Assembly: GCA_016177025.1 (NCBI GenBank)
Contig: JACOWB010000011.1
Span: 1 to 49,132, forward strand
DNA: 49,132 bases
DNA from: Candidatus Aenigmatarchaeota archaeon
GTDB lineage: Archaea > Aenigmatarchaeota > Aenigmatarchaeia > CG10238-14 > SCSR01
Reading direction: 5' to 3'
Made by a program: the position numbers and the translations under genes. This document shows positions 4,873-25,379 of this stretch, piece by piece (the stretch's first letter is position 1; every line of letters starts with the position of its first letter). The notes beneath the pieces are model-generated. The model had not been told where the DNA came from. It searched no databases and worked only from the letters and a program-made list of their open reading frames with translations.

Positions 4873-6216
4873 ATGGACTGGACTAAAATTCTAAAAGAAG
4901 TCGACCCAGAAACTTATGAGACAGTTCAAAATGAACTTGACAGGCAGAGAAACGGATTGGAAATGATTCCTTCCGAGAATTTCACAAGTCCTGCTGTTCT
5001 GCAAGCAATGGGTTCTATTCTCACAAATAAATATTCCGAAGGATATCCCGGTAAAAGATATTATGGTGGCAATCAGTTCATTGATGTTGTAGAAAAGCTT
5101 GCGATAGAAAGAGCGAAAAAACTTTTCGGAGTCCCTCATGCAAATGTCCAGCCCTATTCCGGCTCACCAGCTAACCTCGCTGTTCACGTTGCTGTCTGCC
5201 AACCGGGGGATGTTACGATGGGACTGGAGTTAACCCACGGCGGGCATCTGACTCACGGATGGAAGACTAGTGCCACAGGACAACTCTGGAAAAGCGTGCA
5301 ATATCACGTGAAGCCAGACGGTTACATAGATTTCGACGAAGTTAGAAAATTAGCGCAAGAAAATAAACCGAAACTCATCTGGGTTGGATTTACGGCATAT
5401 CCTCGCGAATTTCCATTCGAAGAATTTTCAAAAATTGCCGATGAAGTTGGAGCGTATCTTGCTGCTGACATATCACATATATCCGGATTGGTTATATCCG
5501 GTGCGCACAAAAGTCCTGTTCCTTATGTTCACATAGTCACTACAACGACACACAAAACCTTGCGCGGTCCTAGAGGAGCGATTATAATGGTAACGCAGAA
5601 AGGTCTGGATAAGGATCCTGAGTTGGCTGATAAAGTTGACAAAGCCGTGTTTCCCGGATTGCAAGGCGGTCCGCATGACCATACTACTGCCGGCATAGCC
5701 GTTGCTTTGTTGGAAGCATCAAAGCCAGAGTTCAAAGAATACGGGCAGCAGATTGTTAGAAATGCTAAATCTCTGGCTGAAGAATTGATGAATAATGGGT
5801 TGAAACTTGTTACGAACGGAACAGACACACACTTGATGTTGATAGATCTGACGCCTTTCGGCAAAGGCAATGGCGTGTTCATACAGGATGCTTTAGAGAC
5901 AGCAGGAATTACTTTGAATAAAAACACCATTCCAAATGACCCCTCATCGCCGTTTTATCCAAGCGGAGTCAGATTAGGCACGCCAGCTCTGACAACAAGA
6001 GGAATGAAGGAGAACGAGATGAAAATTATAGGAAAGTTAATATCGCAAGTTGTGCATACCGCAAAGGATTATCATTTACCTGAGAACAAGGATGAACGTG
6101 CGGAATACCTGAAAAAGTTCAGGGAAGAAATCAAAAATAACGGAACTGTAAAGTCGGTCAGGGAAAAGGTATTTGAACTTTGCAAACAATTTCCTTTATA
6201 TCCAGGGTTGCAATGA
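4873..6216 (+). CDS. glyA: Serine hydroxymethyltransferase
   Basis: EMIPSENF, YSEGYPGKRYYGG, HGGHLTHG, TTTTHKTLRGPRG (PLP lysine). Confidence 0.98.
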   Translation: MDWTKILKEVDPETYETVQNELDRQRNGLEMIPSENFTSPAVLQAMGSILTNKYSEGYPGKRYYGGNQFIDVVEKLAIERAKKLFGVPHANVQPYSGSPANLAVHVAVCQPGDVTMGLELTHGGHLTHGWKTSATGQLWKSVQYHVKPDGYIDFDEVRKLAQENKPKLIWVGFTAYPREFPFEEFSKIADEVGAYLAADISHISGLVISGAHKSPVPYVHIVTTTTHKTLRGPRGAIIMVTQKGLDKDPELADKVDKAVFPGLQGGPHDHTTAGIAVALLEASKPEFKEYGQQIVRNAKSLAEELMNNGLKLVTNGTDTHLMLIDLTPFGKGNGVFIQDALETAGITLNKNTIPNDPSSPFYPSGVRLGTPALTTRGMKENEMKIIGKLISQVVHTAKDYHLPENKDERAEYLKKFREEIKNNGTVKSVREKVFELCKQFPLYPGLQ

Positions 6217-6335
6217 GCTTTAAATCGGGAGACGTGTACCCTTCAAGAAAGACGCATCTTTGTTGCCATATGGAGACTTTTAAGAAGAGCTTGGTCAATT
6301 TTGATATATATTGCATGTGTTTCTGCCACGTATAG
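6213..6335 (+). CDS. 40-aa Cys/His-rich microprotein, copy A (MSFKSGDVYPSRKTHLCCHMETFKKSLVNFDIYCMCFCHV)
   Basis: ATGA overlap with the glyA stop; gap-free alignment to the paralog at 25257-25379. Not in the ORF track. Confidence 0.8.
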   Translation: MSFKSGDVYPSRKTHLCCHMETFKKSLVNFDIYCMCFCHV

Positions 6336-6367
6336 CATTTAAAACGTTAACTGTGGTATTCTAGCAT

Positions 6368-6808
6368 ATGCCATTAAGCCTGACAACCGAGTTCCTTATG
6401 TTTTCATTTGTTTTTATCGCGGGAAATTACATATTGGATCTGTTCTCGAAAAAATTCCTGCATATAGACGGGACCGACTTTTTATTTTTTGCGCCGTGGC
6501 TTGCCGCGATCAAGTTTGGTGTTTATGAAGGTGTTGTCTTAGCTGCGGTTATTTTAGTTTTGCATGCTTTCATGCACATGCGGATAGCTCGTTTTATTAT
6601 ATTGTCCTTTCCCACGCAGATACTGGCTGTTTTTATGGGATATCTATTTGGTATAGAAGGATTCTGGGTCACTTTGGTGGTTTATTATTTTGCTTCTAGT
6701 GTTGTTACAGGATTGCTTGGTGGAATAGGTGGAATGTATTTCATGTTCCTTTTAACCAACTCAATTACGAATATTGCCGCGTTTTTTGTTTACAAATTTC
6801 TGTTATAA
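6368..6808 (+). CDS. Hypothetical multi-pass membrane protein
   Basis: 146 aa, almost entirely hydrophobic segments. Confidence 0.7.
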   Translation: MPLSLTTEFLMFSFVFIAGNYILDLFSKKFLHIDGTDFLFFAPWLAAIKFGVYEGVVLAAVILVLHAFMHMRIARFIILSFPTQILAVFMGYLFGIEGFWVTLVVYYFASSVVTGLLGGIGGMYFMFLLTNSITNIAAFFVYKFLL

Positions 6809-6813
6809 ACCAA

Positions 6814-7644
6814 TTATAATGTCTTGACTTGTTCTGGTTTCTTGGTAATCTCAAAGACATTAAACATTTTCGAACTTTTGTCAGCCGCGAGGTCCATTTG
6901 TTTGTCGCTTCCTGCAATAAAACACCAAAGGTCGAAAAAAGTCGGAATGAATACTCCATAAACATGCGAACTCTTGAAAACGTTCTTGAAGACCTTTCTC
7001 ATATGTTTTACAGCTTCAGGATAAGTGTAGTATCCGGAGATTTGATAAACTAGCACGCCATTTTTCCTAAGAAGTTTCTTTACACTCTTGATAAATCCAA
7101 TCTGGTAAAGCCTGTTAACCTGTCGACTACTTTCTTTAATTTCAAAATCCGTCAAATCAACAAAAATCACGTCGAACCTCTCATCGTTATTTAAAACAAA
7201 ATGAAATGCATCTTGGTTAATTATCTTAACTTTTGGATTCGAAAATACTTTTCTGAAATTTTTAAAATATTTTTTTGCGACTTCTGTAACCCTTTCGTCT
7301 ATGTCCACAATTTTAATTTCCTTTATAGAGTGTTTCAGAGCTTCTCTCGCCACGCCTCCGTCCCCCCCGCCCAATATCAAAATCTTTTCCACAACTTTAT
7401 TCTTCAAAACAGGTTCTACAAATGAGGAATGGTATAATTCCTCATCCGTTTCAAAGAATTGAGACTCCCCATTTAATATTAATCCTTTCCCTAACCCGTA
7501 GAATTCTGCAACCTGTATTTTCTGGAATTTACTATTGCCGTCGAAGAGGATTTTTTTGATTCCGAAAGCTGGGTGCATATTTTTATCAAAAAAAACCAGA
7601 CTATCTTTAAACTTGGATATTTTCTTTTCAATCATGCAGTTCAT
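6814..7644 (-). CDS. speE: Polyamine aminopropyltransferase (spermidine synthase family), divergent
   Basis: SKFQKIQV, LILGGGDGGVARE, VDIDERV, DAFHF, DVIFVDLTD; ATGA overlap with speD. Confidence 0.85.
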   Translation of the reverse strand: MNCMIEKKISKFKDSLVFFDKNMHPAFGIKKILFDGNSKFQKIQVAEFYGLGKGLILNGESQFFETDEELYHSSFVEPVLKNKVVEKILILGGGDGGVAREALKHSIKEIKIVDIDERVTEVAKKYFKNFRKVFSNPKVKIINQDAFHFVLNNDERFDVIFVDLTDFEIKESSRQVNRLYQIGFIKSVKKLLRKNGVLVYQISGYYTYPEAVKHMRKVFKNVFKSSHVYGVFIPTFFDLWCFIAGSDKQMDLAADKSSKMFNVFEITKKPEQVKTL

Positions 7645-8000
7645 CCTGTCAAAGTGTATTTTCTCTCAAAAGAAGTCTTCTTGACATGTTTCGGTTTGAA
7701 TTTTTCCAATAGAAATTTCATCGCTTTCTCGGCTTTTTTCTTTCCATCACATGAAAAAACGTCTATCGCAGCATAGTTGAATTCGGGCCATGTGTGCAAT
7801 GCAACATGAGAAGTTTTTAACAAGGCATAGCCTGTAATGCCATGCGGATTAAACTTATGGAGTCGTATTCCTATCAACTCCAAACCAGATGCCTTTACAG
7901 CTTCCTTGACAGTCGTCTTAACGAATCGAATATCATCTAACAATTTCTTGCTGCAGCCATACAAATCTGCGCATATGTGATAACCCCTTTTGCCTTTCAT
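7641..8000 (-). CDS. speD: Pyruvoyl-dependent S-adenosylmethionine decarboxylase family proenzyme
   Basis: GYHICADLYGC, HKFNPHGITG, SHVALHTWPE, IDVFSC. Confidence 0.88.
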   Translation of the reverse strand: MKGKRGYHICADLYGCSKKLLDDIRFVKTTVKEAVKASGLELIGIRLHKFNPHGITGYALLKTSHVALHTWPEFNYAAIDVFSCDGKKKAEKAMKFLLEKFKPKHVKKTSFERKYTLTG

Positions 8001-8092
8001 TTTCCGAAATAATTTATACCTTCTATTTTTCTATGGTTTTATGACATTAAAACCTTTCTAGAATTGTGCATCTAAGATAAATTTCTGGTATT

Positions 8093-9814
8093 TTATTGTT
8101 TTATGACTAGTGCTTTCTTCTTGACAGCGATCCTAACTTCCGATTCCAACCTGCCCAATGGTCTGTCCTCCAAATTAATGAATTTCATATGCGCTGCAAC
8201 TGTGGGATGGACTTTCTGGACGGCGTAGAACATATCCTGCACTAGCTTTCTATAATCCGGATGTCCGCCAGGAGTTGTTCTCAATTCGCATAAATGAAAC
8301 AGCTGTCTTGCATTCAGTCGGTAATACCATCGTGTGTTAAATCCAAAAGTCACGACATACTGCGCTTGAAACGGAAGAATGGGATGCAGTTTATTGAACA
8401 AATCTATCACCTGCCGCATCTTGTTTTCATAGTCATCGGATATACCTATTTCCTTGAACTCCTTTCTTGTATTGTAACCGAGGTTTACTGTGAAATTCTG
8501 CCTCTCCTGCGTGCATACCCTATGCCTTTGTATATCACGGAATATCCCGACTCTTGCATTGAGATCAAAGAGATATTCCACGCTTTCAAACGCTCTTCCA
8601 GGTTTGTGCCTGCGATTGACCCTATTGCCGACATATGCAGCGATAATTTTCTTTCTCTCCTCTCGGGGCATGAGGATAGCTTTTTCTATAAGCTGGCTCA
8701 TCGAATGACCGTGGCCGAATTTGTAAAGTATGCTGGCAGTCAAAATGACCTGAGTCGTATCATCGGGATTCTCCGCGCCTTTTCCTGTATATCCGACTAG
8801 TCTAAATTGTTCCGTTGAATCATTCGTCTCCACACCAGCCAATACCTGATTTACTAGATTGAAGGTGTCTTCAGTTCTTCCTTTGAAAAATTCTTGATAT
8901 GCCATGCCATGTTTGTCTGGGACTCGTTTAATTAGCGAAGGAACAAGCTTGTTCAATTCTGCATAAATATTCTGACCAATCCATTTGGATTCAGCCAATG
9001 GCGACGATAATAATTTTAATACAAGGTTTTCATAAGAGCGTGCGTTCATGTTTATGCCGACATGAGTCAATGTTGCCATCGGAAGATAGTCCCTTATCAA
9101 ATCCAGTGCGTTCGCTTTCACAGAGTTGTCATATGCTTTCTTTAAATCAGTTTCTGTTATCCCGTATTTTTCTTCTATTTCTGGCGTCAACTCGGAAACT
9201 TTTACTATCGCATCGCCAATCCTGAAAGTTTGCGACTCGAAAGGATTCAAATCTGATATATATTTTAACATCATTTCCATGTGCGTGGTATATGATGCGA
9301 GCAGACTTCTCATCAGGTTCAAGTACTCATCAGCATACCGCGAATTGAGTATATCAGGATCCTTGTAGAACATGAATTCTCCATTAGGAAGAGTCTTGTC
9401 GAAGAAAACATATCGTGTGGATTTTTCGATATACGAACCTATCCGAGATTCTTCTATTTCCTTTACAGCCAAATTTGATACGAACTCGCATGAAACAGGC
9501 AATCCACCAGACATTTCCTGAATAGAATCATCACCATAGTCAACAAGCCATGCTTCGAAAAATTCCCTTCCCCTGTCTTTGTTCGGCAGGAATTCCTTGA
9601 GGAAAAGTTTCTTTCCTGTAAAAATTGTCCTACTGTATCTCGATAGCAATGCTCCAATTTGTTCCGGTGTCAGTATATCGCCAATTTTCCACGCAAAGAT
9701 ATTGCTGTCGGTATTCGATACAACATTCGATAGAGTCTGAACTTCTTCGTCGGTGAATTCTTCTACAGGAATTCCTTGGTCGTTCTCCCAGAATTTAAGC
9801 AATGTTTCAGGCAC
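8093..9814 (-). CDS. thyX: FAD-dependent thymidylate synthase, long tandem-domain form
   Basis: YIEKSTRYV in the N domain; FRDIQRHR, HLCELRTTPGGHPDYR in the C domain; GTG start. Confidence 0.92.
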   Translation of the reverse strand: MPETLLKFWENDQGIPVEEFTDEEVQTLSNVVSNTDSNIFAWKIGDILTPEQIGALLSRYSRTIFTGKKLFLKEFLPNKDRGREFFEAWLVDYGDDSIQEMSGGLPVSCEFVSNLAVKEIEESRIGSYIEKSTRYVFFDKTLPNGEFMFYKDPDILNSRYADEYLNLMRSLLASYTTHMEMMLKYISDLNPFESQTFRIGDAIVKVSELTPEIEEKYGITETDLKKAYDNSVKANALDLIRDYLPMATLTHVGINMNARSYENLVLKLLSSPLAESKWIGQNIYAELNKLVPSLIKRVPDKHGMAYQEFFKGRTEDTFNLVNQVLAGVETNDSTEQFRLVGYTGKGAENPDDTTQVILTASILYKFGHGHSMSQLIEKAILMPREERKKIIAAYVGNRVNRRHKPGRAFESVEYLFDLNARVGIFRDIQRHRVCTQERQNFTVNLGYNTRKEFKEIGISDDYENKMRQVIDLFNKLHPILPFQAQYVVTFGFNTRWYYRLNARQLFHLCELRTTPGGHPDYRKLVQDMFYAVQKVHPTVAAHMKFINLEDRPLGRLESEVRIAVKKKALVIKQ

Positions 9815-9854
9815 AAAGTGAAGATGAGATTTAAACTATTAATTCTTTCAATTT

Positions 9855-11129
9855 TTACAATTGTTCTAATTCGTGAAGAAGTCTAACAAATCCTTTTTCT
9901 CTTATCAATTCTGAAACATTCTGTGTACTATTAGAACCTACAGCTAAACAAATGGAATCGTGATCAGATGCTAAAAAGTCAATTCGTTGTTTCAACTCCG
10001 GATTTACTTCAAACAAGTCCCTTTTCCCGTTTGGATAAGATACCGCTACATTATCGGCACTTTTCTTTACTCTTTCTCCAGAAGTTGTGAAGAGAATGAC
10101 ATCTGCAGAATCGACTTTCGTTAATTCCGCTACTTTTCTTTCTGTTTTATCTCTATCAGCTAGTGAACTAACAGATTGAACCAGTTTATCATATTCTTGA
10201 TCATCTACAAGTTCTTCATTACGTACAGAAAATTTTCTTACAGCACGTTTTATTCGTGCTACCATCCACAAGTGTGGTTGGTTAAAATTATCACTAAAAA
10301 CGGTCTTGTATACACTTTGTGTTATTGGGTTTGCAGAATGTCTAACGGTGTTCATAGCTTCTATGTCATCCCAATTCCACATCTCATACGGATCTATCCC
10401 ATCCGTCTTGATAGCATTGTATAATGCCTTCAACATAGCTGTGGCAATAAGTGTAGGGGCTTCATCTAGATACACTGCCATATAGTTAAACGCATATGAA
10501 TTTACAACAGCTTCCGCTTGTCCTAATCCCTGATATAATACGCCATAACTTTCTCCATCAAACCACAAGTAAGGTAATACTCCAGTAGTATCTGTTTGAG
10601 GCATACCCACATGATGTCTATCCCTTGCAATATAATCCAGTCTATCCGCACTCAAAGCATGATGAGAGACTATTTGATGATAAGGATGCGAACCATCTAA
10701 CATACTTCGAACTTTTGCATAGTCAACAATATTTTCCAACAAAGGTTTAAGTCTTTCTAACTTTTCTAATGTCATGCTTTCATGACTTTTCCCAGTCAGT
10801 TCTTGTAAAAGGGTTTCCCCAGTATGGGACCAAAATGGGTGACCCAAATCATGCAATACGCCAGCGAGCTTTAGAGCATTTACGTCTTCTCTACTGAAGC
10901 GTAACCATTCACCTATCTTTCCTGCTAAATAACCTGCACCTAGACTATGCTCCAATCTAGTAACATTGGCACCCGGTCTAACCGGATAAACGAAACTCAT
11001 TTGTCTTAATTCAGCAAGTCGCCTCAATTCTCCTTGCCCCAGAAGGACTGTTGCGTCCCCAAGAATTTCCGGTATAGCGGCATTCCCATAAGGGTGAGGT
11101 ACCCAAATCGTCGAGTTTGCCGAATACAT
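9855..11129 (-). CDS. HD-domain phosphohydrolase (SAMHD1/dNTP triphosphohydrolase-like)
   Basis: LRRLAELRQM, TRLEHSLG, LHDLGHPFWSH, SADRLDYIARD; likely start ATG 11129. Confidence 0.85.
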   Translation of the reverse strand: MYSANSTIWVPHPYGNAAIPEILGDATVLLGQGELRRLAELRQMSFVYPVRPGANVTRLEHSLGAGYLAGKIGEWLRFSREDVNALKLAGVLHDLGHPFWSHTGETLLQELTGKSHESMTLEKLERLKPLLENIVDYAKVRSMLDGSHPYHQIVSHHALSADRLDYIARDRHHVGMPQTDTTGVLPYLWFDGESYGVLYQGLGQAEAVVNSYAFNYMAVYLDEAPTLIATAMLKALYNAIKTDGIDPYEMWNWDDIEAMNTVRHSANPITQSVYKTVFSDNFNQPHLWMVARIKRAVRKFSVRNEELVDDQEYDKLVQSVSSLADRDKTERKVAELTKVDSADVILFTTSGERVKKSADNVAVSYPNGKRDLFEVNPELKQRIDFLASDHDSICLAVGSNSTQNVSELIREKGFVRLLHELEQL

Positions 11130-11196
11130 AAAATTGAACTGAAAAATAACATTTAAATACCGGCATTTAATTAGAATTATTGGAGGTGTGATGATA

Positions 11197-11337
11197 ATGG
11201 CATTAGCTGTCAAATCTGCTGTTCGTGGTCAGTTGAAGGGGATGCGAGCAGGCGGAGATTTCTTCAAAGAACTGGACAACAAAATTGCTTGTTTATCTTC
11301 AACTTTTCATTTTAAAATTAGGTCGGTCAAAGGATGA
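11197..11337 (+). CDS. Small histone-fold protein (alpha3-less / face-to-face type), C-terminus apparently replaced
   Basis: GGAGGTG RBS; MALAVKSAVRGQLKGMRAGGDFFKELDNKIA fits alpha1-loop-alpha2; the tail CLSSTFHFKIRSVKG lacks RAKxxxRKT. Not in the ORF track. Confidence 0.7.
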   Translation: MALAVKSAVRGQLKGMRAGGDFFKELDNKIACLSSTFHFKIRSVKG

Positions 11338-11576
11338 GTCAGTCTAGTGATAGCAATCAGCAGCAAGCTTACAGATTACGTGCAGTCTTAATACAAAACT
11401 CAACTAAAAGCCCTAGTAGTTCCAGAAGATTCGTTTCCGAGGACGCATCTCGTCATTTAGCTCGCCAAATCTATGGTGACAATTGTGTAGAAATTGGTTG
11501 GGCATTTAATTTTCTTCGTTCCCAAAGGTATGCTAGAGAAGTGGTAAGAAATGGCGTACGAGGATATCTTGTCTAA
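11334..11576 (+). CDS. Hypothetical protein (ORFan, possibly winged-helix-like)
   Basis: 80-aa ORF whose ATG overlaps the histone-ORF TGA; stop overlaps the DUF1512 stop. Confidence 0.5.
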   Translation: MSQSSDSNQQQAYRLRAVLIQNSTKSPSSSRRFVSEDASRHLARQIYGDNCVEIGWAFNFLRSQRYAREVVRNGVRGYLV

Positions 11577-12748
11577 AAACCAAACCATCTTTTCCCCTGT
11601 TTCTCCTGCTCTGCCCTTCCTTTCATCATCTTTGATATCTCTTTCGCTTTCTTTTCCGCGACTTCGGTAGATTTCTTGTCATTCCCGACGCCGCTAGTGT
11701 TCCCAACGCCTAAAAGAATGATAGTCCCTCTTTTCTTGGTGTTCTTGATATTCTGCTCGACAATGCTCACAGCCCTCGGCACAGCCTTCAAAACATCCAA
11801 AGGCATGTTCATTATCGCTTCCTCAGGCGCCATCTTGATCGCAACAGACTCTATAGGAACTTTCTTCTCTGTCGCGACGTTTTCAATAAATGCACGATAG
11901 AAGCTCCCCATTGCAACTCCAATGCCTTCCGCAACTGATCCTGTCCTTTCCCCTTCCAATTTCCCTGCAGCGTCAACAGAAATTATCTTCGCCACCTTAC
12001 CACGCCTGACTTCCTTTTCTACAACTTCCCACGGCTTTCCCAATCTTCCGCCCGGGCCTTTCGCCTTTATTATAACAACACTCCTTCCCTTGATCTTCTT
12101 CCTTGCAACAATCGTGTCCCTGATATCTTTTCCTCGCGAGTCGCCGATCATATGCGATGCGACCATCGGTCCGATTGAGTCGCCCATCGGCCATCCGTTG
12201 GCCATGGTTTCAGTCCCGTTGAGCATGGCTTTGGCCACCTTTTCAATAAACGGCATCTGCATCTGAAGAATCATCGCCAGTTGCAAACTCTTCGTTTTTT
12301 TTATAGTTTCAACAAAATGCCGCACTATTTTTGCGATTTGATTCATGCTAATGGCGCCCGACAATCCGCCAACAAGGCTCGCTTGATCTTCGGGATTCAT
12401 CTTAGGAGCCACTTCCTTGCTGAAGTCCTTGAACTTGTCTTCCACGAGCTCGACAAGATGGTTCAATTTATTCAATATCCCGTAAGGATCAAGATTTACA
12501 GGCTCGATTGCAAAAAACTCCATAAAGTTTCCGACCTTCTCTCTCAGTTCATGCGATGGTTTGTTAGATATCCTTCTGAGCACTATCTGCTTGGTTTTGT
12601 GGGTATAACCTTCAAGCATCAGCGCAGTGCCTTCAAGCTTCCCCAACATCTGCATGAGCATTAGGCGAGGATAGAAGAACATCATCACTACAAAAAATCC
12701 TATCCAGATTGCAGTCCCGATGAAGCTTGTATCCCCGAATAAAGGCAT
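11573..12748 (-). CDS. DUF1512-family archaeal membrane protein
   Basis: N-terminal TM, IEPVNLDPYGI, GWPMGDSIGP, VDAAGKLEGERTGSVAEGIGVAMG, GVGNTSGV. Confidence 0.8.
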   Translation of the reverse strand: MPLFGDTSFIGTAIWIGFFVVMMFFYPRLMLMQMLGKLEGTALMLEGYTHKTKQIVLRRISNKPSHELREKVGNFMEFFAIEPVNLDPYGILNKLNHLVELVEDKFKDFSKEVAPKMNPEDQASLVGGLSGAISMNQIAKIVRHFVETIKKTKSLQLAMILQMQMPFIEKVAKAMLNGTETMANGWPMGDSIGPMVASHMIGDSRGKDIRDTIVARKKIKGRSVVIIKAKGPGGRLGKPWEVVEKEVRRGKVAKIISVDAAGKLEGERTGSVAEGIGVAMGSFYRAFIENVATEKKVPIESVAIKMAPEEAIMNMPLDVLKAVPRAVSIVEQNIKNTKKRGTIILLGVGNTSGVGNDKKSTEVAEKKAKEISKMMKGRAEQEKQGKRWFGF

Positions 12749-12802
12749 TTTTCCACTCAGAAGTATTCAAGATTTCGCAGTGCTCATTTAAATAAATTCT
12801 GT

Positions 12803-13015: not shown

Positions 13016-13117
13016 TATATCAATTTGTCACCGCAGATATTATATAATTAGAGTTTGTCCATACCGACACAACAGACGTTGTCACTAATATGTAGTGAAG
13101 AATAGAAAAGCTTATAT

Positions 13118-13939: not shown

Positions 13940-13985
13940 ATCGCAACTTAATATTAATAAATTTTCAATTATATAGTAGAATTCT

Positions 13986-14666: not shown

Positions 14667-14709
14667 ATGCCAGAAATTAAAAATCGAATAAATTAAAAGG
14701 AGTGATTTA

Positions 14710-16784: not shown

Positions 16785-16837
16785 AATCCCATCTTTTATT
16801 GATTTTTCAACATTCATAAAGGCGTTAGAATCAGAAT

Positions 16838-17662: not shown

Positions 17663-17778
17663 AACATGATATATGTGAGAGGATAGAAAAACTTGTTGAT
17701 ACCGTATATGCGACATTTGATAGTGTATTATTTCCCGAGTTCTAATGTAATACGTCTTACATATAGGCAAGAAAGCTC

Positions 17779-18003
17779 TCAAATCTCAGTTTGTCTTCTA
17801 AATGTTCTACGCACATGTCTTATAACTCTAGGGCCATATGCTACGCCAGACCCAAGCATAACAAGTCCCATTACTGTCCCACAAAATAAAGATTCGTCTT
17901 TCCCGGTCAGATACTGGTAAATACTCGCTATACCTTAACTACCTATGTAATTTCCGATAGCGCCAGCAACTAAACCACTTATTAAATTGCTTTCATAAGG
18001 CAT
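17779..18003 (-). pseudogene. Small two-TM glycine-rich membrane protein with an in-frame TAA
   Basis: MPYESNLISGLVAGAIGNYIGS*GIASIYQYLTGKDESLFCGTVMGLVMLGSGVAYGPRVIRHVRRTFRRQTEI; TAA at 17935-17937. Confidence 0.45.
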
Positions 18004-18147
18004 GCTAATACCAACTAACAAAATACATAATAAATAACTATTTACCTTTTTATTTAAACAATCAGTTGGAAAATGAAATAAACACCTGTCCCATATGGGT
18101 CATCATTAAACTTAAAAAGAAATACCACCAACTCTAATGAGTTAATT

Positions 18148-18336
18148 ATGTCAAAAGGAACGCCCTCAATGGGAAAGTTTCACTCCAAGCTGAAGCATAC
18201 AAGATGCAGGAGATGCGGAAGAGTATCATTTCATATGCAGAAGGGAGAATGCTCTGCGTGCGGTTTCGGCAAGAGCGCCAAGATAAAGGATTACGCTTGG
18301 AAAACACACGACATCAACAGAATGAGAAAGCTGTAG
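18148..18336 (+). CDS. rpl37e: 50S ribosomal protein L37e
   Basis: [34 protein letters not shown] zinc finger. Confidence 0.97.
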
Positions 18337-18882
18337 CTACAAAGTTTTGATAATCATGATGCACTTGCCTCCAAGCTCCTGAAGATCGCCGTTATTTGAA
18401 ATTTCAAAATCAAATTTTTCATGATTGATAATCTTCCCCAAGTCATTCACCTTTTTGTCCTTTTCGTCGACTCCGTTGAAATCTTCCTTCGAGACCATGG
18501 GATCAATTTCCCGTTTTCGCGACAGGTATCTTTTGTATCTGATTTTATAATCGGCATCGAGCTTGACCAAATAGAACTTGAAATCCTTCTTGTTCCTCCA
18601 AAAATCAAGCGCTGAACTAGTCCGTATGTTTGGGATTATTATTTTAGTTCCTTTTTCTTTCAATATTTCTTCGAAGAGAAGTTCGTCGGCTTTCCTGCCC
18701 AACTTTTGCAAAAGCACTCTATACGCATCTCTGGTGTGAGGCAAATTCTTGCTTTTCGCGACTGGCGCCAAAACTTTTTCTGTGTAGCTGTATTTTTTAA
18801 ATCCGTGCTTGGCGAAAATGTTCGCGACCGTGTCCTTGCCGGAGCAAGTAAGCCCGCACAAACCAACGCAGATTTTTTTCAT
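18337..18882 (-). CDS. P-loop kinase (dephospho-CoA-kinase-like family), paralog 2
   Basis: VGLCGLTCSGKDT; IIPNIR; RYKRYLSRKRE; DFEISNNGDL. Confidence 0.8.
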   Translation of the reverse strand: MKKICVGLCGLTCSGKDTVANIFAKHGFKKYSYTEKVLAPVAKSKNLPHTRDAYRVLLQKLGRKADELLFEEILKEKGTKIIIPNIRTSSALDFWRNKKDFKFYLVKLDADYKIRYKRYLSRKREIDPMVSKEDFNGVDEKDKKVNDLGKIINHEKFDFEISNNGDLQELGGKCIMIIKTL

Positions 18883-18883
18883 A

Positions 18884-19459
18884 TCAACATCTTATTGACG
18901 ATGGTAAAAGCGTTCCATTCAATCTCTGCAACTCATGTCTCAAATTTCCCAAGCCGTCGACATTGTTATCAATCACCAAATCAAAATGATTCCCGGATTT
19001 TATCTTTCCCATGTCAGTTAATCTTGAGTCCTCGTCATCAATCTTTCTCAGATCTTCGATTGTCGCTATAGTTTTCTCACCCTCTTTCTCCCGTCTTAAG
19101 TATCTTGAAAACCTCGTTTCTTCAGACGCTTCGACCCAGCCCATCGTATACGGATAACCCAGACTTGTAAAATAGTTTCTTGTCGCCAACAGCCTGCCAT
19201 TCGGAGTAATTAAAACGCCTGTGCCACCCTCGACCGCCAGTTGATGCAATCTTTCATATGCAGATATACCCATTTTCACATACAAGGACCTCAGGGATTC
19301 TCTCGTTATAGGCATGCCTCTTTTCACAGCTTCAGGTATCAGTATTCTTTCAGTCATGTCCAGTATCTTGATGTTAATATCAGGGCAAGCCTGTTTTATC
19401 ATCTCTCCTGCGGTATTCTTTCCAGAGCAGGTGTATCCGCTTAGTTCAATGACATGCAT
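18884..19459 (-). CDS. P-loop kinase (same family), paralog 3
   Basis: IELSGYTCSGKNT; RFSRYLRREKE; DLVIDNN; start ATG 19459 (the track start runs into the tRNA). Confidence 0.75.
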   Translation of the reverse strand: MHVIELSGYTCSGKNTAGEMIKQACPDINIKILDMTERILIPEAVKRGMPITRESLRSLYVKMGISAYERLHQLAVEGGTGVLITPNGRLLATRNYFTSLGYPYTMGWVEASEETRFSRYLRREKEGEKTIATIEDLRKIDDEDSRLTDMGKIKSGNHFDLVIDNNVDGLGNLRHELQRLNGTLLPSSIRC

Positions 19460-19518
19460 TAATTTCACAAGCGTTCTTAAGTTTATAAATTTATTTGATA
19501 ATTCCAAACTAATAATAA

Positions 19519-19635
19519 GGGCCCATAGCTCAGCATGGCAGAGCACCTGGCTTTTAACTATATGTTAAAAAGCATATTGATCCAAGATGATAGGAAGGAA
19601 CCAGTGGGTCGAGGGTTCAAATCCCTCTGGGCTCA
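19519..19635 (+). tRNA. tRNA-Lys(TTT) with 43-nt intron at 37/38 (19557-19599)
   Basis: Acceptor GGGCCCA/TGGGCTC; BHB helix CTTT/GAAG, outer helix CTAT/ATAG; T arm GAGGG-TTCAAAT-CCCTC. Confidence 0.9.
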
Positions 19636-19642
19636 TTCAACC

Positions 19643-20047
19643 ATGAAATCAAAAATGCAAAAGTCTGACACAGAATGGAAAACATGTCTGTCTCCAGAAG
19701 AGTATCGCATTCTAAGAGAAAAGGGAACCGAAACCCCGTTCACTGGAAAATACTACAAGAACAAGAAGAAAGGAATGTACATCTGTGCTGGATGCGGGGC
19801 TGAATTATTTCCCTCCGATACCAAATACGAGTCCGGTACAGGATGGCCCAGCTTTTGGAAACCTGCCAAAAAAGAAAACGTGGAAACCAAGCCTGATAAT
19901 AGTCTATTCATGCAGAGGACTGAAGTCTTGTGCAAGAAATGCGGCGGTCATCTCGGACATGTTTTTGATGACGGGCCAGAACCGACAGGAAAAAGATTCT
20001 GTATAAATTCCGCTTCATTGAATTTCAAAGAAAAAAAATCTAAATAG
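19643..20047 (+). CDS. msrB: Peptide-methionine (R)-S-oxide reductase
   Basis: [48 protein letters not shown]. Confidence 0.96.
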
Positions 20048-20049
20048 CT

Positions 20050-20658
20050 CTAGAACCCAAGTTTTTCCTTAACAAACAGTATTGTGATCCTTCCAGCCAT
20101 TTTTTCTTTATTTACAATCAGAATCTTGTTAACCCCGCTACCAACACCGTAAGTTTTTTTCGCCCTTTCATCTTCTAATGGAAAAGTATATTCGTAAATC
20201 CTTTTGAGTCCTTCATCAAGATTTTTGACTATCTTTTGCGCACCGACAACCCATATAACATGACTTGCAGCATATACATAGGCTGGCAACTGGCTGCCGC
20301 TGTTGGATGCAATTAGCACTTTTCCGTCTTCGGTTACAGCATGCGCACTTCCAACTGCCCATTCGGGAGCTGCACCCAATTTTTGCATCTCCGCACCCTG
20401 AGTGTTTCTGTCCATTGACATTAATTTTTTCTTCACAGAATTGTATTTTTCAGATTCCATTATCTCCTTTGATAAGCCAATGGTGTCCAAGGTCGTGGAA
20501 CTCATGTTCATGACCTCTGATCCTTCAGGCAAAATCCCCAGAACTTTCTCCCTTGCCTCTTCACCATTCTCAACTACGATGGCGTCTATTCCATTTGCTT
20601 TAAGCGCTTTAACCGTAGCTTGAATCTGCGCATCGCTCGCAAGTTCATCCCATTTCAT
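20050..20658 (-). CDS. LUD-domain (lactate-utilisation / DUF162-like) protein
   Basis: SSTTLDTIG, AVGSAHAVTEDG, SNSGSQL, VVGAQKIV, YEYTFPLEDER. Confidence 0.8.
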   Translation of the reverse strand: MKWDELASDAQIQATVKALKANGIDAIVVENGEEAREKVLGILPEGSEVMNMSSTTLDTIGLSKEIMESEKYNSVKKKLMSMDRNTQGAEMQKLGAAPEWAVGSAHAVTEDGKVLIASNSGSQLPAYVYAASHVIWVVGAQKIVKNLDEGLKRIYEYTFPLEDERAKKTYGVGSGVNKILIVNKEKMAGRITILFVKEKLGF

Positions 20659-20682
20659 ATAATCACAAAAAAGAGGAGAAGA

Positions 20683-20820
20683 TTAGTTGTTCTTCTCCAA
20701 TTCTTTAATTCGTTCGCCAACACCTTTGGCTTCCTTCTCCAGATTATCCTTGTATTCCTTAAGCATCTCTACCTTTTCATCCTTTGTAAGAAAGCCTCTT
20801 GCTCCAAATTCACCACACAT
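20683..20820 (-). CDS. 45-aa coiled-coil protein (DUF5320-like, PadR-associated)
   Basis: GGAGGTG RBS; MCGEFGARGFLTKDEKVEMLKEYKDNLEKEAKGVGERIKELEKNN. Not in the ORF track. Confidence 0.8.
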   Translation of the reverse strand: MCGEFGARGFLTKDEKVEMLKEYKDNLEKEAKGVGERIKELEKNN

Positions 20821-20837
20821 TATAACGCCACCTCCTT

Positions 20838-20898
20838 TATATCGGCCATACGATATATTGATTTGACAGGTATTTAAATGTATCGGACGTCCAATATA
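20838..20898. promoter_or_regulatory. Two inverted-repeat operators (TATATCG-N6-CGATATA type) flanking a TATA box
   Basis: Perfect copy 20838-20857; imperfect copy TGTATCG-GACGTC-CAATATA 20879-20898; TATTTAAA between them; lies between divergent padR and the 45-aa gene. Confidence 0.65.
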
Positions 20899-20902
20899 TC
20901 TT

Positions 20903-21202
20903 ATGAGAAAAGATTACTGCTGTGACATGAGAGGAATGCTTTCATTTCTTATACTGTTTTTACTTTCAAAAAAGGCGATGCATGGTCAGGAAATTGCAGA
21001 GGAACTAGAAAAAAGAAAGGGCGACAAACCCAGCCCAGGTACAATATACCCTGCTCTTAGAATGCTAAACAAAGATGGTTTAATCAAAAAGAAAAAGTCC
21101 GGAAAGACAATAACTTATAGTCTGACGCCTATTGGTAAAAGAGTGCTTGACATCGCAAAAAAGAAATTTGTCAGGACTTTTTTTGGGGTTTCCTCACCTT
21201 AA
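20903..21202 (+). CDS. PadR-family transcriptional regulator
   Basis: MRGMLSFLILFLL...MHGQEIAEEL, PSPGTIYPAL, YSLTPIG. Confidence 0.92.
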   Translation: MRKDYCCDMRGMLSFLILFLLSKKAMHGQEIAEELEKRKGDKPSPGTIYPALRMLNKDGLIKKKKSGKTITYSLTPIGKRVLDIAKKKFVRTFFGVSSP

Positions 21203-21250
21203 GTCTTAAATTGTCGCAGTTGCAACTTTCATGTTCAGAAAAGCCAATGG

Positions 21251-22228
21251 CTAAACTTCGACATTAATAAAATTATTCGTTTCGTTCAGCTCATCTATAA
21301 CATTGTTGGGGTCCAACATTATTTCTATCGCACTGAAATCTTTTTCTACGCGCAGATTACCAAGCGTAACGCTTAGGCTATTTCCAATCTGTATATCAGG
21401 CAATGTGTCGTTCTTCACTGCAATGCCGTCAGTGCTTATCGCCATCTGCGGGGATATCGCATCAACCAAACCATTGTTTTCTATTATTAGACTAATGTTG
21501 ATCAGATAAAATGTTGTAATCCTTTTTACAGTCGCCTTGGACACATTAGCTTCTATTATGCGCAAGTCCGGTTCCGGTTCAACCGAATATATTTCCTGCA
21601 GTCTGCTAACCTCCTTGTCAGGAATCCCTTTTATTTCTTTCGACGGCACAACCAAAATCGGATGCATTATATCATTCTCATCATCACTGTGATTCAGCCC
21701 CAGGGCATGGCCCATTTCATGTATGGCAAGATTCGTCATATCGATCGTGCTCAATTGCTTAGGTCCTGATTTGGTTAGGAGCTGTATATCCGCGCTTTGT
21801 ATCAGACCTGTCCCACTAATGTTGATGAACTTAATGTCTGTATTCCCGAGTGTATCCATCGCCTTTTCTTTCAGACTCGATACCCATTCGACTGTGACGT
21901 CAGCGGCAGGAGAGGATGTCACAAAAAATGATACGGTGTTATTCGTAGATGCTTGCCATAATTCTAGAGCTCCCCTGAAAGCATCAACATATTCCGTGTC
22001 TTGTCTGACAGAATCAGTGTCTACATATACCGTCAACGGAAAGTGGTTCCATCTTAAATTAAGCGTTTGCGGCTCTTCTTCGGGCAGGTTGAACTTGGAT
22101 TCGCTCACATTAATCGGTGTGATGGGGGAGCTTAATTCAATGAGCATCTGGCCGCTTTTATAACCAATCACAACCAAGATCGCCAGAATCAGAATGCCCA
22201 CGATAGAATTGATCAGTTTCATAATCAA
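21251..22228 (-). CDS. Membrane-anchored matrixin-type zinc metalloprotease with C-terminal CARDB-like domain
   Basis: HEMGHALGLNH, Met-turn DIMHP; PDLRI...IENNG...LDPNNVIDELNETNN. Confidence 0.88.
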   Translation of the reverse strand: MIMKLINSIVGILILAILVVIGYKSGQMLIELSSPITPINVSESKFNLPEEEPQTLNLRWNHFPLTVYVDTDSVRQDTEYVDAFRGALELWQASTNNTVSFFVTSSPAADVTVEWVSSLKEKAMDTLGNTDIKFINISGTGLIQSADIQLLTKSGPKQLSTIDMTNLAIHEMGHALGLNHSDDENDIMHPILVVPSKEIKGIPDKEVSRLQEIYSVEPEPDLRIIEANVSKATVKRITTFYLINISLIIENNGLVDAISPQMAISTDGIAVKNDTLPDIQIGNSLSVTLGNLRVEKDFSAIEIMLDPNNVIDELNETNNFINVEV

Positions 22229-22291
22229 AGTTGGTTTGCATAATAGAAATGTTTTTATTAAAGGTTCACCATAGCTATTTCCGCTGATTTT

Positions 22292-22615
22292 ATGGTTATT
22301 CGAAAAATAGGCAAAGCTGTTGGCACATTGACAGGACCTAATTGGAAAAACCAGAGAAGAGGCCTGACGATTGGAAGGGAGTTACAGGAATTCAGAAGGG
22401 TCTTCAAGGACAATTTTGTCACTTTGATCGTTTCCGCGTTCGGTGTCGTTGCAGCTCTGAGCTGGAATGATGCTTTAAAAGAGGTCATATTCGTGTTTTT
22501 TCCTGAAAAAGGGGATTTGATAGTTAAAGTCTATACTGCGGTTGCTGTAACTATTCTCTCGATAGTTGTTACATATCTTTTGTCAAAGTTGAAGACAAAA
22601 ACCAGTTCAAATTAA
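22292..22615 (+). CDS. DUF5654-like small membrane protein
   Basis: LIVSAFGVVAALSWNDA...YTAVAVTILSI signature. Confidence 0.75.
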   Translation: MVIRKIGKAVGTLTGPNWKNQRRGLTIGRELQEFRRVFKDNFVTLIVSAFGVVAALSWNDALKEVIFVFFPEKGDLIVKVYTAVAVTILSIVVTYLLSKLKTKTSSN

Positions 22616-22644
22616 TTTAAAGGTAGATACAAACTATTTCTTAG

Positions 22645-22731
22645 GGGCCCATAGCTCAGCATGGTAGAGCAGCTCAAGTGTTGCTGAAGCTCTTAACGAG
22701 ACGGTCATGGGTTCGAATCCCATTGGGCTCA
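22645..22731 (+). tRNA. tRNA-Lys(CTT) with 13-nt non-canonical intron at 30/31 (22676-22688)
   Basis: Acceptor GGGCCCA/TGGGCTC; splicing restores GCTCG/CGAGA around CTCTTAA; perfect BHB helix CAGC/GCTG. Confidence 0.9.
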
Positions 22732-23682
22732 CTAAATTGGCTTTAAAATTATAGCATTATTATCCCGGTCGAAGTCACTCTTAGCTTGAGAAGAATCTAT
22801 AGTCAAAGTAATCAAATCAACATTCCTTTCCGTATAAATCGCATCTGGTATCATCCAACCTGCTCCCGAACTCATGGCTGGTAGTGTATGCATTTTAGTT
22901 TCATCATCAAGCTTTATTTCAATCGAGACATTCTCTGATGTGATGAGACCCCTGTTCCAGACCGTGAAGTTTATTATGATGTATTTGTCGTGCTGTTCTG
23001 CGTTGACATCGCCGAAGTACAAATCAGGCAAAGCTTCTATAGAATACAGATTTCTCAGGGTCTGTTTCATCTCGTCTGTGATTTTGGCGCTGCAATCTAC
23101 GGAAGGGAACATCACACTCTTTACATCAGTCGTATGCGCGAATCCCAAGACATGTCCGATTTCGTGAACGATTGTTATCTTGTTTTCACATTCGCTTGAT
23201 GTAGGCGTATACAGCATCTCAGCTGATCTTACAAGACTGAAGAGGCCGGTGTCGATTGCATCCAACTTGGCTTCACCGAGCGTGACTGTTATGGCTGATG
23301 TATTCCTTTCATTATATTCTCCTGCAGTCGCATAGCGGACGATAAAATGAGCTTTTTCCAATTCGGTCACTTCTGTGAATTTAACCAGTCCTGTAGCTTC
23401 CTTGTTCCAGATCTCTATCCCTTCTCGGATAAGTTGCAAGCTTGTGTTCTCGGTTATTCTTGAATAGAAAGTGAGCTCGCTCGAGTTCCAGCGGGCCTTT
23501 TCGTAAATCATTGCGTGCGGAATGGTCACTTGGACGTCATTAAGAATGTATTTATCGGGTTTGAAAGTTTTAGATATTTCTGCATCCTGCTCTGTAGATT
23601 CTGGGCTTTGCGGAGAAAATCGCGGTTCGGCGCATCCCGACAAAAACAAGACGGCTACCAAACAAAAAATCACCAGCTTCAT
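22732..23682 (-). CDS. Lipoprotein matrixin-type zinc metalloprotease with CARDB-like domain (paralog)
   Basis: Lipobox-like LFLSGC after ATG 23682; HEIGHVLGFAH, SVMFP; LPDLYF...VWNRG...DFDRDNN. Confidence 0.85.
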   Translation of the reverse strand: MKLVIFCLVAVLFLSGCAEPRFSPQSPESTEQDAEISKTFKPDKYILNDVQVTIPHAMIYEKARWNSSELTFYSRITENTSLQLIREGIEIWNKEATGLVKFTEVTELEKAHFIVRYATAGEYNERNTSAITVTLGEAKLDAIDTGLFSLVRSAEMLYTPTSSECENKITIVHEIGHVLGFAHTTDVKSVMFPSVDCSAKITDEMKQTLRNLYSIEALPDLYFGDVNAEQHDKYIIINFTVWNRGLITSENVSIEIKLDDETKMHTLPAMSSGAGWMIPDAIYTERNVDLITLTIDSSQAKSDFDRDNNAIILKPI

Positions 23683-23702
23683 AAAAATAACTGCTGTATC
23701 AG

Positions 23703-23909
23703 TTAAAATACAAATCTTTCTTCTAGGATTCTTGCATCGCCGCCGGATTTCTTGATGAATGACGCTATATCCATTAAGCTTGTCAACTCGCCAAAACTCC
23801 ATACAGATCTTTGAATGTGTTTGGCGCCGATTTTAGTCAACATTCTTTGCGCCTGTTTCATGCTTGACTTTTCTCCTAATGGAATGTCGAAAATTAAAGC
23901 AAATCTCAT
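23703..23909 (-). CDS. Stand-alone Cas2/VapD/PaaX-like ferredoxin-fold protein
   Basis: MRFALIFDIP...RMLTKIGAKHIQRSVW matches the hhhhYDI...L...G..hQ.SV pattern; 68 aa from ATG 23909. Confidence 0.7.
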   Translation of the reverse strand: MRFALIFDIPLGEKSSMKQAQRMLTKIGAKHIQRSVWSFGELTSLMDIASFIKKSGGDARILEERFVF

Positions 23910-23928
23910 GTTTTCCCACCTGTTAACA

Positions 23929-23946
23929 ATGTCGCATATGCGACAT
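23929..23946. promoter_or_regulatory. Perfect 18-bp palindrome ATGTCGCATATGCGACAT (candidate operator)
   Basis: Exact reverse-complement symmetry, between the divergent starts at 23909 and 23984. Confidence 0.7.
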
Positions 23947-23983
23947 ACAAAGATTTTTGTATTCAAAAGGATAATAAAGAAAT

Positions 23984-24109
23984 ATGGCAGAAGACGTTAA
24001 AAAGAAAATCGAAGACATAGCATACGAAGTGGGATATTCAACAGGTAAGAAAAAGTACAAAGGATATAAAAAAGGATTCACGAGAAAATACACAGGATAT
24101 AAGAAATAA
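23984..24109 (+). CDS. 41-aa basic peptide with repeated G[YF]KK units
   Basis: MAEDVKKKIEDIAYEVGYSTGKKKYKGYKKGFTRKYTGYKK fills the gap exactly. Not in the ORF track. Confidence 0.6.
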   Translation: MAEDVKKKIEDIAYEVGYSTGKKKYKGYKKGFTRKYTGYKK

Positions 24110-24112
24110 AAT

Positions 24113-25114
24113 CTATTGAACTGTCAGTATAGCTGTGTTGCATATGCTAGATGTGCACAATCTTAAAGTGTGAGTACCTTTTGATAATTGGTTATAGATT
24201 TTAATTGTGGCTATTTCCCCCGAATTAATCTGTGAACCCAAATCATATTCGGCCTTTATTTCTTGCTCTGACAAGGCTCTCCTATATACAGTCACCGAAT
24301 CAAGCAAGCAGGCGCATGGAAAACCGCCCCCCGCCACATCCCCAATAGTAAAGTTTGAAGTTTCTGTAAAATTGTCAATGCCAGTCAGCAGTACAGGTCC
24401 ATTCCCAAGCACGCCATCCTTGTATATACTTAGCCCAACTCCGCGCTTCAAAACAAAAGAATAGAAATGCCAACCCAAATCGGTAATCGACACGCCATTT
24501 GCAGGAAAACCGGTACTATCGTCATCCCTGCCCCCCATGCTAATTGTAGTTCCAGCCACACTTGTTTCTATCGCCCAGCCATCCTGCCCAGTGCCCCTCG
24601 TGTCAAACATAAACTGCCTTCTTAATGCATCATACTTCAGCCAGAAACTCAAAGTAAAGGATGTGCTGTTGTCAAAATCAAGAGTATTGCCATGCGATAC
24701 TACAATGCGGTCATTTATACCGTCAAACTTCATGCAGTTTCCAAACTTGCAGTCGGTTGAGTTCCAACCGCTTGTAGCATTTCCAGTAGTATTCATATTT
24801 GTGAGATTCCCAGTATTCATATTCCCACTACTATCAGCAATAGTGCTTCCGCTTCCCTCATCCATCTTCCAATAGCCTACAAGCGAGGAATCTTGCTTGG
24901 ACACACGATAAACAGCATCATTGCCATCTATTTTAACGTTATTAAAAGATGCTAATGACCCTGTACCCGAATTCCTTATTGTAACTGTGTCGTTAACAGC
25001 ATCAATTATTTCAAATGTTGCTGCTGTTTTGCCTGTGAAAACATCCGATACATACAGGTAAGTTGTTCCGCCTAGCGCACCAACAATCATTAACATTAGA
25101 ATCGATGCAATGAC
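24113..25114 (-). pseudogene. Archaeal type-IV-pilin-like protein with inserted LamG domain, 5'-truncated
   Basis: Frame opens VIASILMLMIVGALGGTTYLY (hydrophobic part of a class III signal) with no upstream K/R-G start and a TAG two codons earlier; LamG motifs LVGYWKMDEG, FDGIND, WHFY, LDSVTVYRRALS. Confidence 0.7.
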
Positions 25115-25196
25115 CTTCGTCTAGCCCGGTCAATTAAAGCCGTTAGGACGTGACCTTCTCGAGGTCGAAACCTGGGTTCAAATCCCAGAGGGAGCA
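25114..25196 (+). pseudogene. tRNA-Glu(CTC) lacking nt 1-4, with 12-nt D-loop intron (25133-25144)
   Basis: 3' acceptor strand AGGGAGC-A; only positions 5-7 (CCT) pair; anticodon arm TGACC-TTCTCGA-GGTCG; BHB helix CGGT/GCCG. Confidence 0.8.
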
Positions 25197-25250
25197 CTTG
25201 CTGGAAGCATGCGCAAATCTTTAAATATAATCACAGCCACCATTCTACTG

Positions 25251-25379
25251 ATGGAAATGAGCTACCTTTCAAGCGATGTGTTTCCAGAACTAAGCAAACA
25301 CGTCTGCTGCAACTTGGAGAGGTTCAAAACGGCTAGTACAGGCTTTAATATATCCTGCCCGTGCTTCTGCCACAAATAA
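25251..25379 (+). CDS. Cys/His-rich microprotein, copy B (MEMSYLSSDVFPELSKHVCCNLERFKTASTGFNISCPCFCHK)
   Basis: TTTAAATATAA box about 25 bp upstream; 19 of 40 positions identical to copy A without gaps (counted from ATG 25257). Confidence 0.8.
   Translation: MEMSYLSSDVFPELSKHVCCNLERFKTASTGFNISCPCFCHK

Follow-up and report, generated by a model that had tools for sequence, protein, structure and literature searches.

A candidate metal-binding microprotein family confined to one genus of Aenigmatarchaeota

Can two open reading frames (ORFs) of only 40 codons in the genome of an ultra-small, uncultured archaeon be genuine genes, and what might the encoded peptides do? The question is raised by a stretch of 49,132 nucleotides (nt) from a Candidatus Aenigmatarchaeota archaeon (contig JACOWB010000011.1 of assembly GCA_016177025.1; hereafter the window, meaning the whole stretch of DNA that was analyzed), in which the following two ORFs encode similar peptides of 40 amino acids (aa):

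6213..6335, + strand: copy A (G000_A), the type A paralog, 40 aa plus stop, MSFKSGDVYPSRKTHLCCHMETFKKSLVNFDIYCMCFCHV
25257..25379, + strand: copy B (G000_B), the type B paralog, 40 aa plus stop, MSYLSSDVFPELSKHVCCNLERFKTASTGFNISCPCFCHK

The two peptides align without gaps, are identical at 19 of 40 positions (BLASTP E = 9e-15) and have five Cys and two His in common (H15, C17, C18, C34, C36, C38 and H39), a resemblance far beyond chance. At the DNA level the likeness is bounded by the ATG and the stop codon, and the flanks are unrelated. The sequence-only reading that drew attention to this pair had reported two 40-aa ORFs with these positions, translations and degree of identity, all of which are correct; its further points, that the ORFs are selected as proteins, that their family was not one it recognized and that they might form a Zn or Fe-S module, are taken up below. 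On balance, we favor the reading that the two copies are true paralogs in a genus-restricted family, the products of which would be small metal-thiolate modules (Zn, Cu or Fe-S) of the cytoplasm, perhaps dimeric.

The genome from which the window derives (G000; 571 kb, 86% complete, with the window as contig 22) belongs to a genus of 11 genomes, its congeners including G001, G002, G003, G004, G007, G008, G009 and G010. A search with a profile built from the pair, as the sequence-only reading had proposed, was productive. Exactly two places in G000 match this profile, namely copy A and copy B (E 1e-28), and clear homologs were recovered from five of the ten congeneric genomes (G001, G002, G003, G004 and G008), G008 carrying two copies in tandem; 50 further genomes from the family and order contained no homolog. 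When a second profile was run against 371 genomes of the phylum, the family appeared in this genus only, with 6 of its 11 genomes positive and none of the 360 others. Four weak additional matches in these 371 genomes, one of them in congener G007, proved to be unrelated frames or to contain stop codons. A metagenome scan yielded two contigs, L019, with a copy identical to that of G001, and L020, with a 79%-identical ortholog of copy B. Beyond copies A and B there are seven distinct copies, distributed over five congeneric metagenome-assembled genomes and one metagenome contig, and the resulting nine distinct sequences constitute the family alignment. Within G000, more diverged paralogs were absent at profile E <= 10, and a scan of ATG-started ORFs of 25-70 aa with at least five Cys added none. 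Across 596 Gb of genomes the DNA pattern CC-N45-CxCFCH returned known members and chance matches only; the best additional match (L124) was rejected as lying on the opposite strand of what is, by eye, probably a YebC-type gene. The family is thus narrow, being found in one genus and in 6 of its 11 genomes.

Four independent lines of evidence indicate that these ORFs encode proteins. Frame +1 contains no stop codon in any of the nine distinct copies, and the other five frames contain 7-25 stops in total. In all 15 pairs compared, differences at third codon positions are about twice as frequent as at positions 1 and 2. Synonymous sites are saturated, with proportions of synonymous differences (pS) of 0.6-1.1 against nonsynonymous proportions (pN) of 0.08-0.39, yet the amino acids are conserved; the frame is under strong purifying selection. 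By Nei-Gojobori counting, the ratio of nonsynonymous to synonymous substitution rates (dN/dS) is 0.07 for copy B and its L020 ortholog, the closest pair and the only one close enough to be measured well. Selection at the protein level, which had been proposed on the strength of the two copies alone, is therefore borne out by the whole alignment. An RNA element was considered and rejected, as Rfam gave no credible match over copy A or copy B and the RNAalifold consensus on the copies amounted to three pairs at -0.5 kcal/mol, with covariation absent. We consider it highly likely, judging from these patterns of substitution, that the family comprises real, selected protein-coding genes that are actually translated.

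The predicted peptides are 40-41 aa long (4.5-4.7 kDa), soluble and close to neutral, with an isoelectric point of 6-8.4, a grand average of hydropathy of about 0, and neither a signal peptide nor a hydrophobic segment. Ten positions are invariant in the nine copies (M1, D7, H15, C17, C18, C34, C36, F37, C38 and H39), and the family as a whole follows the pattern SF(R/K)SGDxFP-x4-H-x-CC-N-x-E-x2-K-x9-C-x-C-F-C-H-x. The Cys spacing CC-x15-CxCxC does not vary, with no insertion or deletion between C18 and C34. Selection is concentrated on the seven classical metal ligands, one Asp and the N-terminal SFRSGDxFP motif. Cys accounts for 5 of 40 residues (12.5%), and besides the invariant F37, positions 3 and 9 are occupied by Phe or Tyr. 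All nine members are devoid of CxxC, where zinc ribbons and C(P)XCG proteins have at least two such knuckles.

The novelty of the family survived every sequence library and database tried. Neither copy matched a family in Pfam-A or NCBIfam, even at E <= 10, and none of the nine members matched a family in PHROGs or PADLOC. The sole match among Protein Data Bank (PDB) sequences, at E 2.6, is attributable to chance, and IMG/VR held no relative. A word-indexed search of 5.8 billion protein clusters gave no match, and an exhaustive HMMER scan of 1.84 billion protein representatives gave two, both of them repeat artefacts that matched through a short HxxCCNxERxK-like motif; one of these may be a eukaryotic THAP-type protein. 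Eight exact member sequences were sought in a collection of 15 billion proteins and none was present; these ORFs have never been called by any pipeline. A literature search found no description of the family. As judged from these comparisons, the microproteins are a new family in which the ligand pattern is unusual, and not a new kind of system.

What such a peptide might do is suggested chiefly by its residues. Seven invariant Cys and His and an invariant Asp fall within 40 residues, which speaks for a metal site, and the peptide could fold around one or two metal ions, or around a small metal-thiolate or Fe-S cluster. An HxCC knuckle where a predicted helix (residues 16-27) starts and a C-terminal CxCxCH strand would supply the ligands. 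Bridged thiolate clusters, such as those of metallothioneins and Zn3Cys9 CXC domains, typically have vicinal CC and CxC pairs, and small dimeric iron sites likewise draw on such pairs, as with CC in desulforedoxin and CxC...H in NEET proteins. A dimer is favored because the vicinal CC and CxC spacings typify bridged thiolate clusters and not single CxxC zinc knuckles; it might be a homodimer or an A/B heterodimer, with the site possibly completed across the interface. In the cell it might buffer metal or redox state, or serve as a structural metal module bound to a partner protein. Whether the peptide binds metal at all we judge to be evenly balanced.

Several observations weigh against a metal-binding module of this kind. 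No metal-binding family matches the peptides, even weakly, and they lack the usual zinc signature, a CxxC or CxxH knuckle. Their Cys content is below that of metallothioneins, and they contain invariant aromatic residues. AlphaFold2, run on the nine-sequence alignment, predicted a helix at residues 16-27 only (predicted local distance difference test score, pLDDT, 52; predicted template modeling score, pTM, 0.19), which yields no fold that would support a metal site; we take the model to speak neither for nor against metal binding. Five of the 11 genomes of the genus are without the family, which is to that extent dispensable, and the gene neighborhood holds no consistent partner. A complete sufC/sufBD/sufS (class-V aminotransferase)/nifU-like operon does lie at 29935-33665 on the - strand, and the microprotein genes of G000, G004 and G008 are found 0.8-4.5 kb from the 3' end of this operon. 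They either face the operon in convergent orientation or have unrelated genes between them and it, and this proximity may reflect inherited synteny within one genus and not a functional link.

Among the alternatives, a metal-free microprotein fares best, although we regard it as unlikely. Such a peptide would rely on disulfides or redox-active thiols, or would act as a small regulatory binder of a larger protein, in the manner of Methanosarcina sP26, which reportedly binds glutamine synthetase. It would agree with the failure to recover any metal-binding family or fold, with the conservation of the N-terminal SFRSGDxFP in the fashion of a short linear binding motif, and with the translational coupling of two of the genes to upstream neighbors that are unrelated, namely glyA (G000) and a 334-aa ORF (G002). 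Yet the peptide is cytoplasmic and these DPANN archaea are anaerobic, so that stable disulfides are improbable, most of the invariant residues are classic ligands (5 Cys, 2 His and 1 Asp), and the upstream partners vary from genome to genome. The case of glyA is instructive in this last respect, and it involves the following features:

4873..6216, + strand: glyA, serine hydroxymethyltransferase (Pfam SHMT, E 4.9e-157)
6337..6344, + strand: TATA-like box ATTTAAAA of the 146-aa gene at 6368-6808, starting 2 nt past the copy A stop

The ATG of copy A overlaps the TGA of glyA as ATGA. Copy A has no promoter of its own, and would therefore be expressed only from the glyA mRNA by translational coupling. 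The sequence-only reading had coupled copy A to glyA on account of this overlap, which is real; the arrangement is nevertheless peculiar to G000, as in both G008 and G007 the ortholog of the 146-aa gene comes immediately after glyA, leaving an empty site with no micro-ORF. In G008 the homologous promoter and start region of the 146-aa gene are present without it, and the additional ~130 nt at the G000 glyA site are essentially a bare ORF. Copy A is best understood, from this comparison of sites, as a secondary, promoter-less insertion at the glyA stop codon in G000 only. The coupling would then reflect where an expressible copy could survive, and because the glyA site of G008 and G007 is without the micro-ORF, it provides no evidence for a partnership with GlyA. 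Two further ideas about this site were discarded. The first was that a cassette flank had been captured as the C-terminus of the upstream genes: the upstream likeness of G000_A and the G002 copy is not significant, being reached by 12% of shuffles, and the GlyA C-terminus FPLYP(G/N)L is native, being found in congeners without the micro-ORF. The second was that the G001 copy also lies downstream of glyA; its upstream ORF is unrelated to glyA.

Copy B resides in a different setting, which bears on a further alternative and comprises the following features:

25114..25196, + strand: tRNA-Glu(CUC) gene (Rfam tRNA, 22.7 bits, below the gathering score)
25220..25227, + strand: TATA box of copy B, TTTAAATA, starting 37 nt before the ATG
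25381..25388, + strand: TATA box of the zinc-finger gene, CTTAAATA, starting 2 nt past the copy B stop
25471..25632, + strand: gene for a 53-aa CxxC-x17-CxxC protein (Pfam PF23477 zf_Tbcl_2, E 5.4e-19)

The TATA box of copy B and the CxxC-x17-CxxC protein downstream had both been pointed out from the sequence, and both are confirmed, the latter now with a Pfam family. The same box stands at a similar distance before the copy on L020, copy 2 of G008 and the G001 copy, so that TTTAAATA is found 22-29 nt before the ATG in four copies. In archaeal promoters such a TATA-ATG spacing implies a leaderless or very short-leader mRNA, and this spacing would imply the same for copy B. The second box, at 25381..25388, is assigned to the zinc-finger gene and not to the microprotein because congeners without an upstream micro-ORF have kept it: both the box and a conserved 5' leader are retained in G001, on contig 18 of G003, in G009 and in G004. 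Every one of the 11 genomes of the genus has the zf_Tbcl_2 gene, whether or not it has the microprotein, as do 13 of the 27 genera of the family; the predicted product of this gene, a treble-clef zinc finger, is to be seen as a neighbor of the microprotein family and no member of it.

In light of this arrangement, one might suppose that the ORF acts in cis, as a Cys-codon-rich upstream ORF that senses the supply of cysteine or Cys-tRNA and controls the gene downstream. Polycysteine leader ORFs are said to regulate downstream genes in mycobacteria. Small-ORF surveys of these bacteria exist (PMC4633059). In keeping with such a role, in five of the nine copies 1-10 nt separate the stop from the promoter of the same-strand gene that comes next, and a Cys4 zinc-finger gene follows copy B. 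Purifying selection nonetheless extends along the whole peptide (D7, H15, F37, H39 and the N-terminal motif), well beyond the Cys codons; the downstream genes vary, including the zinc-finger gene, a gene for a 146-aa membrane protein, one for a G8/PA14 protein and a convergent gene; the zinc-finger gene keeps its own promoter and leader in genomes without the micro-ORF; and copy A lies downstream of glyA, not upstream. We consider control of this kind very unlikely.

A slightly poorer prospect still is that the ORF encodes the precursor of a peptide that is made on the ribosome and modified after translation (RiPP), with the conserved N-terminus as leader and the Cys-rich C-terminus as core. 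The layout of a conserved N-terminal half followed by CxCxCH would fit, and the length is typical of precursors. Against this, no maturase gene is found near any copy, the neighbors being glyA, tRNA, zinc-finger and NTP_transferase genes and ORFs of unknown function, and there is no transporter or protease among them. YcaO is present in none of the 11 genomes of the genus, a SPASM radical-SAM protein is present in G002 only, some 72 kb from its copy, and the genomes measure merely 0.4-0.9 Mb. Weakest of all, and exceedingly improbable, is the view that there is no gene and that the frame stands open by chance in a repeat in the DNA, a conserved non-coding RNA or what is left of a tRNA-linked attachment site, for although a tRNA gene adjoins several copies and no gene finder has ever called the ORF, the substitutions have codon periodicity with amino acids kept at synonymous saturation, only one of six frames is open in every copy, the conserved block is bounded exactly by start and stop codons, and RNA structure, covariation and Rfam matches are all lacking.

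The commonest gene order is tRNA-Glu(CUC), TATA box, one or more microprotein genes, TATA box, zf_Tbcl_2 and NTP_transferase, as seen in G000 (copy B), in G008 (the two tandem copies) and on L020, and the site between tRNA-Glu(CUC) and zf_Tbcl_2 is probably ancestral for the family. A type-A-like copy comes after the tRNA in G003, and then ten bases, ATGAGCTACC, that match the start of type B, at which point the contig ends. In G001 the tRNA runs straight into the zinc-finger promoter (GGGAGCA-TCA-AGCTTAAATA), an empty site, and the single copy lies elsewhere with a TATA box of its own. The G004 gene is found ~470 nt downstream of the zinc-finger gene, and the ATG of the G002 gene overlaps the stop of the unrelated 334-aa ORF. 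In other genera the zinc-finger gene has neither a tRNA-Glu neighbor nor a micro-ORF, one genome having an unidentified tRNA upstream. Five of the nine copies have the TATA box of the following gene within 1-10 nt of their stop codon, and the microprotein gene travels as a minimal unit, consisting either of a TATA box and an ORF or of a bare ORF placed on the stop codon of another gene.

In a tree of the copies, copy B and the L020 sequence form a type-B clade (support 98/96), which copy 1 of G008 joins weakly (74/78), and copy A groups with the type-A copies of G001, G002, G003, G004 and G008. By this grouping, types A and B are both kept in G000 and probably in G008, and, to go by the 10-nt fragment, they may both be kept in G003 as well. 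Since the two types occur together in G000, and probably in G008, the A/B duplication is older than the split of these species. A more elaborate scenario can be built upon these observations: a young gene, possibly de novo, would have arisen from the spacer between tRNA-Glu and the zinc-finger gene, its two products would form an A/B heterodimer on a metal-thiolate or Fe-S cluster, and it would spread as a minimal ORF cassette that persists wherever it comes to lie beside a promoter or on a stop codon. Taken as a whole this is speculative and rather improbable; if true, it would offer a natural example of the origin and movement of a metal-binding microprotein in a minimal genome.

The site beside tRNA-Glu has some peculiarities of its own. 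The G000 tRNA-Glu(CUC) gene, which was missed by ARAGORN, is missing the initial 4 nt (GCTC) and has an 11-nt insert in the D-loop (25137-25147), and complete orthologs (GCTCCCTTCGTCTAG...) are found in G001, G002, G003, G004, G008 and L020. The break in the G000 gene adjoins the start of a divergent pilin/LamG-like ORF at 24113-25096, and no other tRNA-Glu was found in the 86%-complete G000 with ARAGORN or with sequence motifs specific to the gene; the 5' shortening stems either from a genuine deletion or from a join in the assembly. As compared on L020, L013, L010 (a contig of G004) and L032, among others, the D-loop insert of ~11 nt is present in G000, G001, G003, G004 and L020 and absent from G008 and G002, and an additional 15-nt insert occupies the anticodon loop in G001, G003 and L020; the inserts look like one non-canonical and one canonical archaeal tRNA intron. 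Two more tRNA genes in the window, at 2561-2649 (89 nt; Rfam 47.6 bits) and 19519-19635 (117 nt; 52.6 bits), were likewise not reported by ARAGORN and probably contain introns, the second of them standing just before a small Cys-containing ORF at 19535-20047.

On the other side of copy B lies the ~65-nt 5' leader of the zf_Tbcl_2 gene (25389-25470), the DNA sequence of which is conserved throughout the genus. It contains a hairpin, CTACTTCTGTAG, at 25423-25434, and the motif CTACT(T/C)C...TAGTAG recurs 5' of its orthologs in several further genera of this family; the hairpin may be an autoregulatory RNA element of a small zinc-finger, possibly RNA-binding, protein. In G002, a small ORF with two CxxC pairs (MRLLGCCPSCKNE...KCETCKTVWNN...; L009, which is G002:C1, at ~11100-11300) follows tRNA-Glu and is different from the microprotein gene, and small Cys-rich genes would seem to gather at this spot. 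Between tRNA-Glu and the microprotein gene, G002 and G004 also have, in a variable segment, the gene of a 305-aa protein (L009 7829-8746 and L010 3472-4389) that matches EF-Tu domain 2 and the eIF2-gamma C-terminal domain and in which no GTPase domain was detected. An ORF that ends just 5' of the zinc-finger gene in G010, and by eye in G003, may encode the same 305-aa protein.

These findings add a selected and wholly unannotated family to the small-protein "dark matter" of DPANN archaea, the reduced genomes of which are expected to retain useful genes only. The combination HxCC...CxCxCH without CxxC is unlike the described zinc-ribbon micro-proteins, and could reveal a new minimal metal site. 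Furthermore, filled and empty sites in close relatives capture a 120-nt ORF that has been gained or lost at its own start and stop boundaries, and such footprints bear on how micro-genes arise and move. The practical reach of the family is limited by its confinement to one genus of uncultured organisms.

How, then, does the family compare with systems already known? The peptides resemble metallothioneins in being short, in combining CC and CxC(xC) motifs with His, and in spacings that favor bridged multi-metal clusters, and the literature on CXCXC is largely concerned with metallothioneins and with disulfide-rich secreted proteins. Metallothioneins, however, contain ~15-30% Cys and few or no aromatic residues, against 12.5% Cys and an invariant F37 here, and the family differs further in its conserved non-Cys N-terminal motif, its predicted helix and its lack of homology. 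To our knowledge, there is no archaeal metallothionein family with which it could be compared. Desulforedoxin and the CDGSH (NEET) modules are dimeric units of ~36-40 residues in which CC, or CxC with His, binds Fe or 2Fe-2S. Their motifs (CxxC...CC in desulforedoxin; CxCx2(S/T)x3PxCDG(S/A/T)H in NEET) are unlike those of the family in order and spacing, and no Pfam match links them even at E 10, such that the likeness is one of ligand chemistry only. The neighboring zf_Tbcl_2 protein (PF23477) is also a small Cys-containing protein with a TATA box of its own, and it adjoins the family at the commonest locus, but it is unrelated in sequence to the microprotein and occurs independently of it.

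There remain the archaeal zinc-finger micro-proteins, of which the haloarchaeal C(P)XCG mu-proteins HVO_2753 and Brz are examples. The family shares with these a stand-alone gene of fewer than 60 codons, often missed in annotation, and a Cys-rich, cytoplasmic product with a presumed metal fold; their roles are often regulatory and unknown. C(P)XCG micro-proteins are defined by CxxC/CPXCG knuckles, whereas the present family has HxCC and CxCxCH and is found in one genus, and no sequence similarity connects the two (Pfam, NCBIfam and PDB are empty in this regard). Even without those defining CxxC/CPXCG features, it is the archaeal Cys-rich micro-proteins that, by analogy, the family would most resemble in its manner of working.

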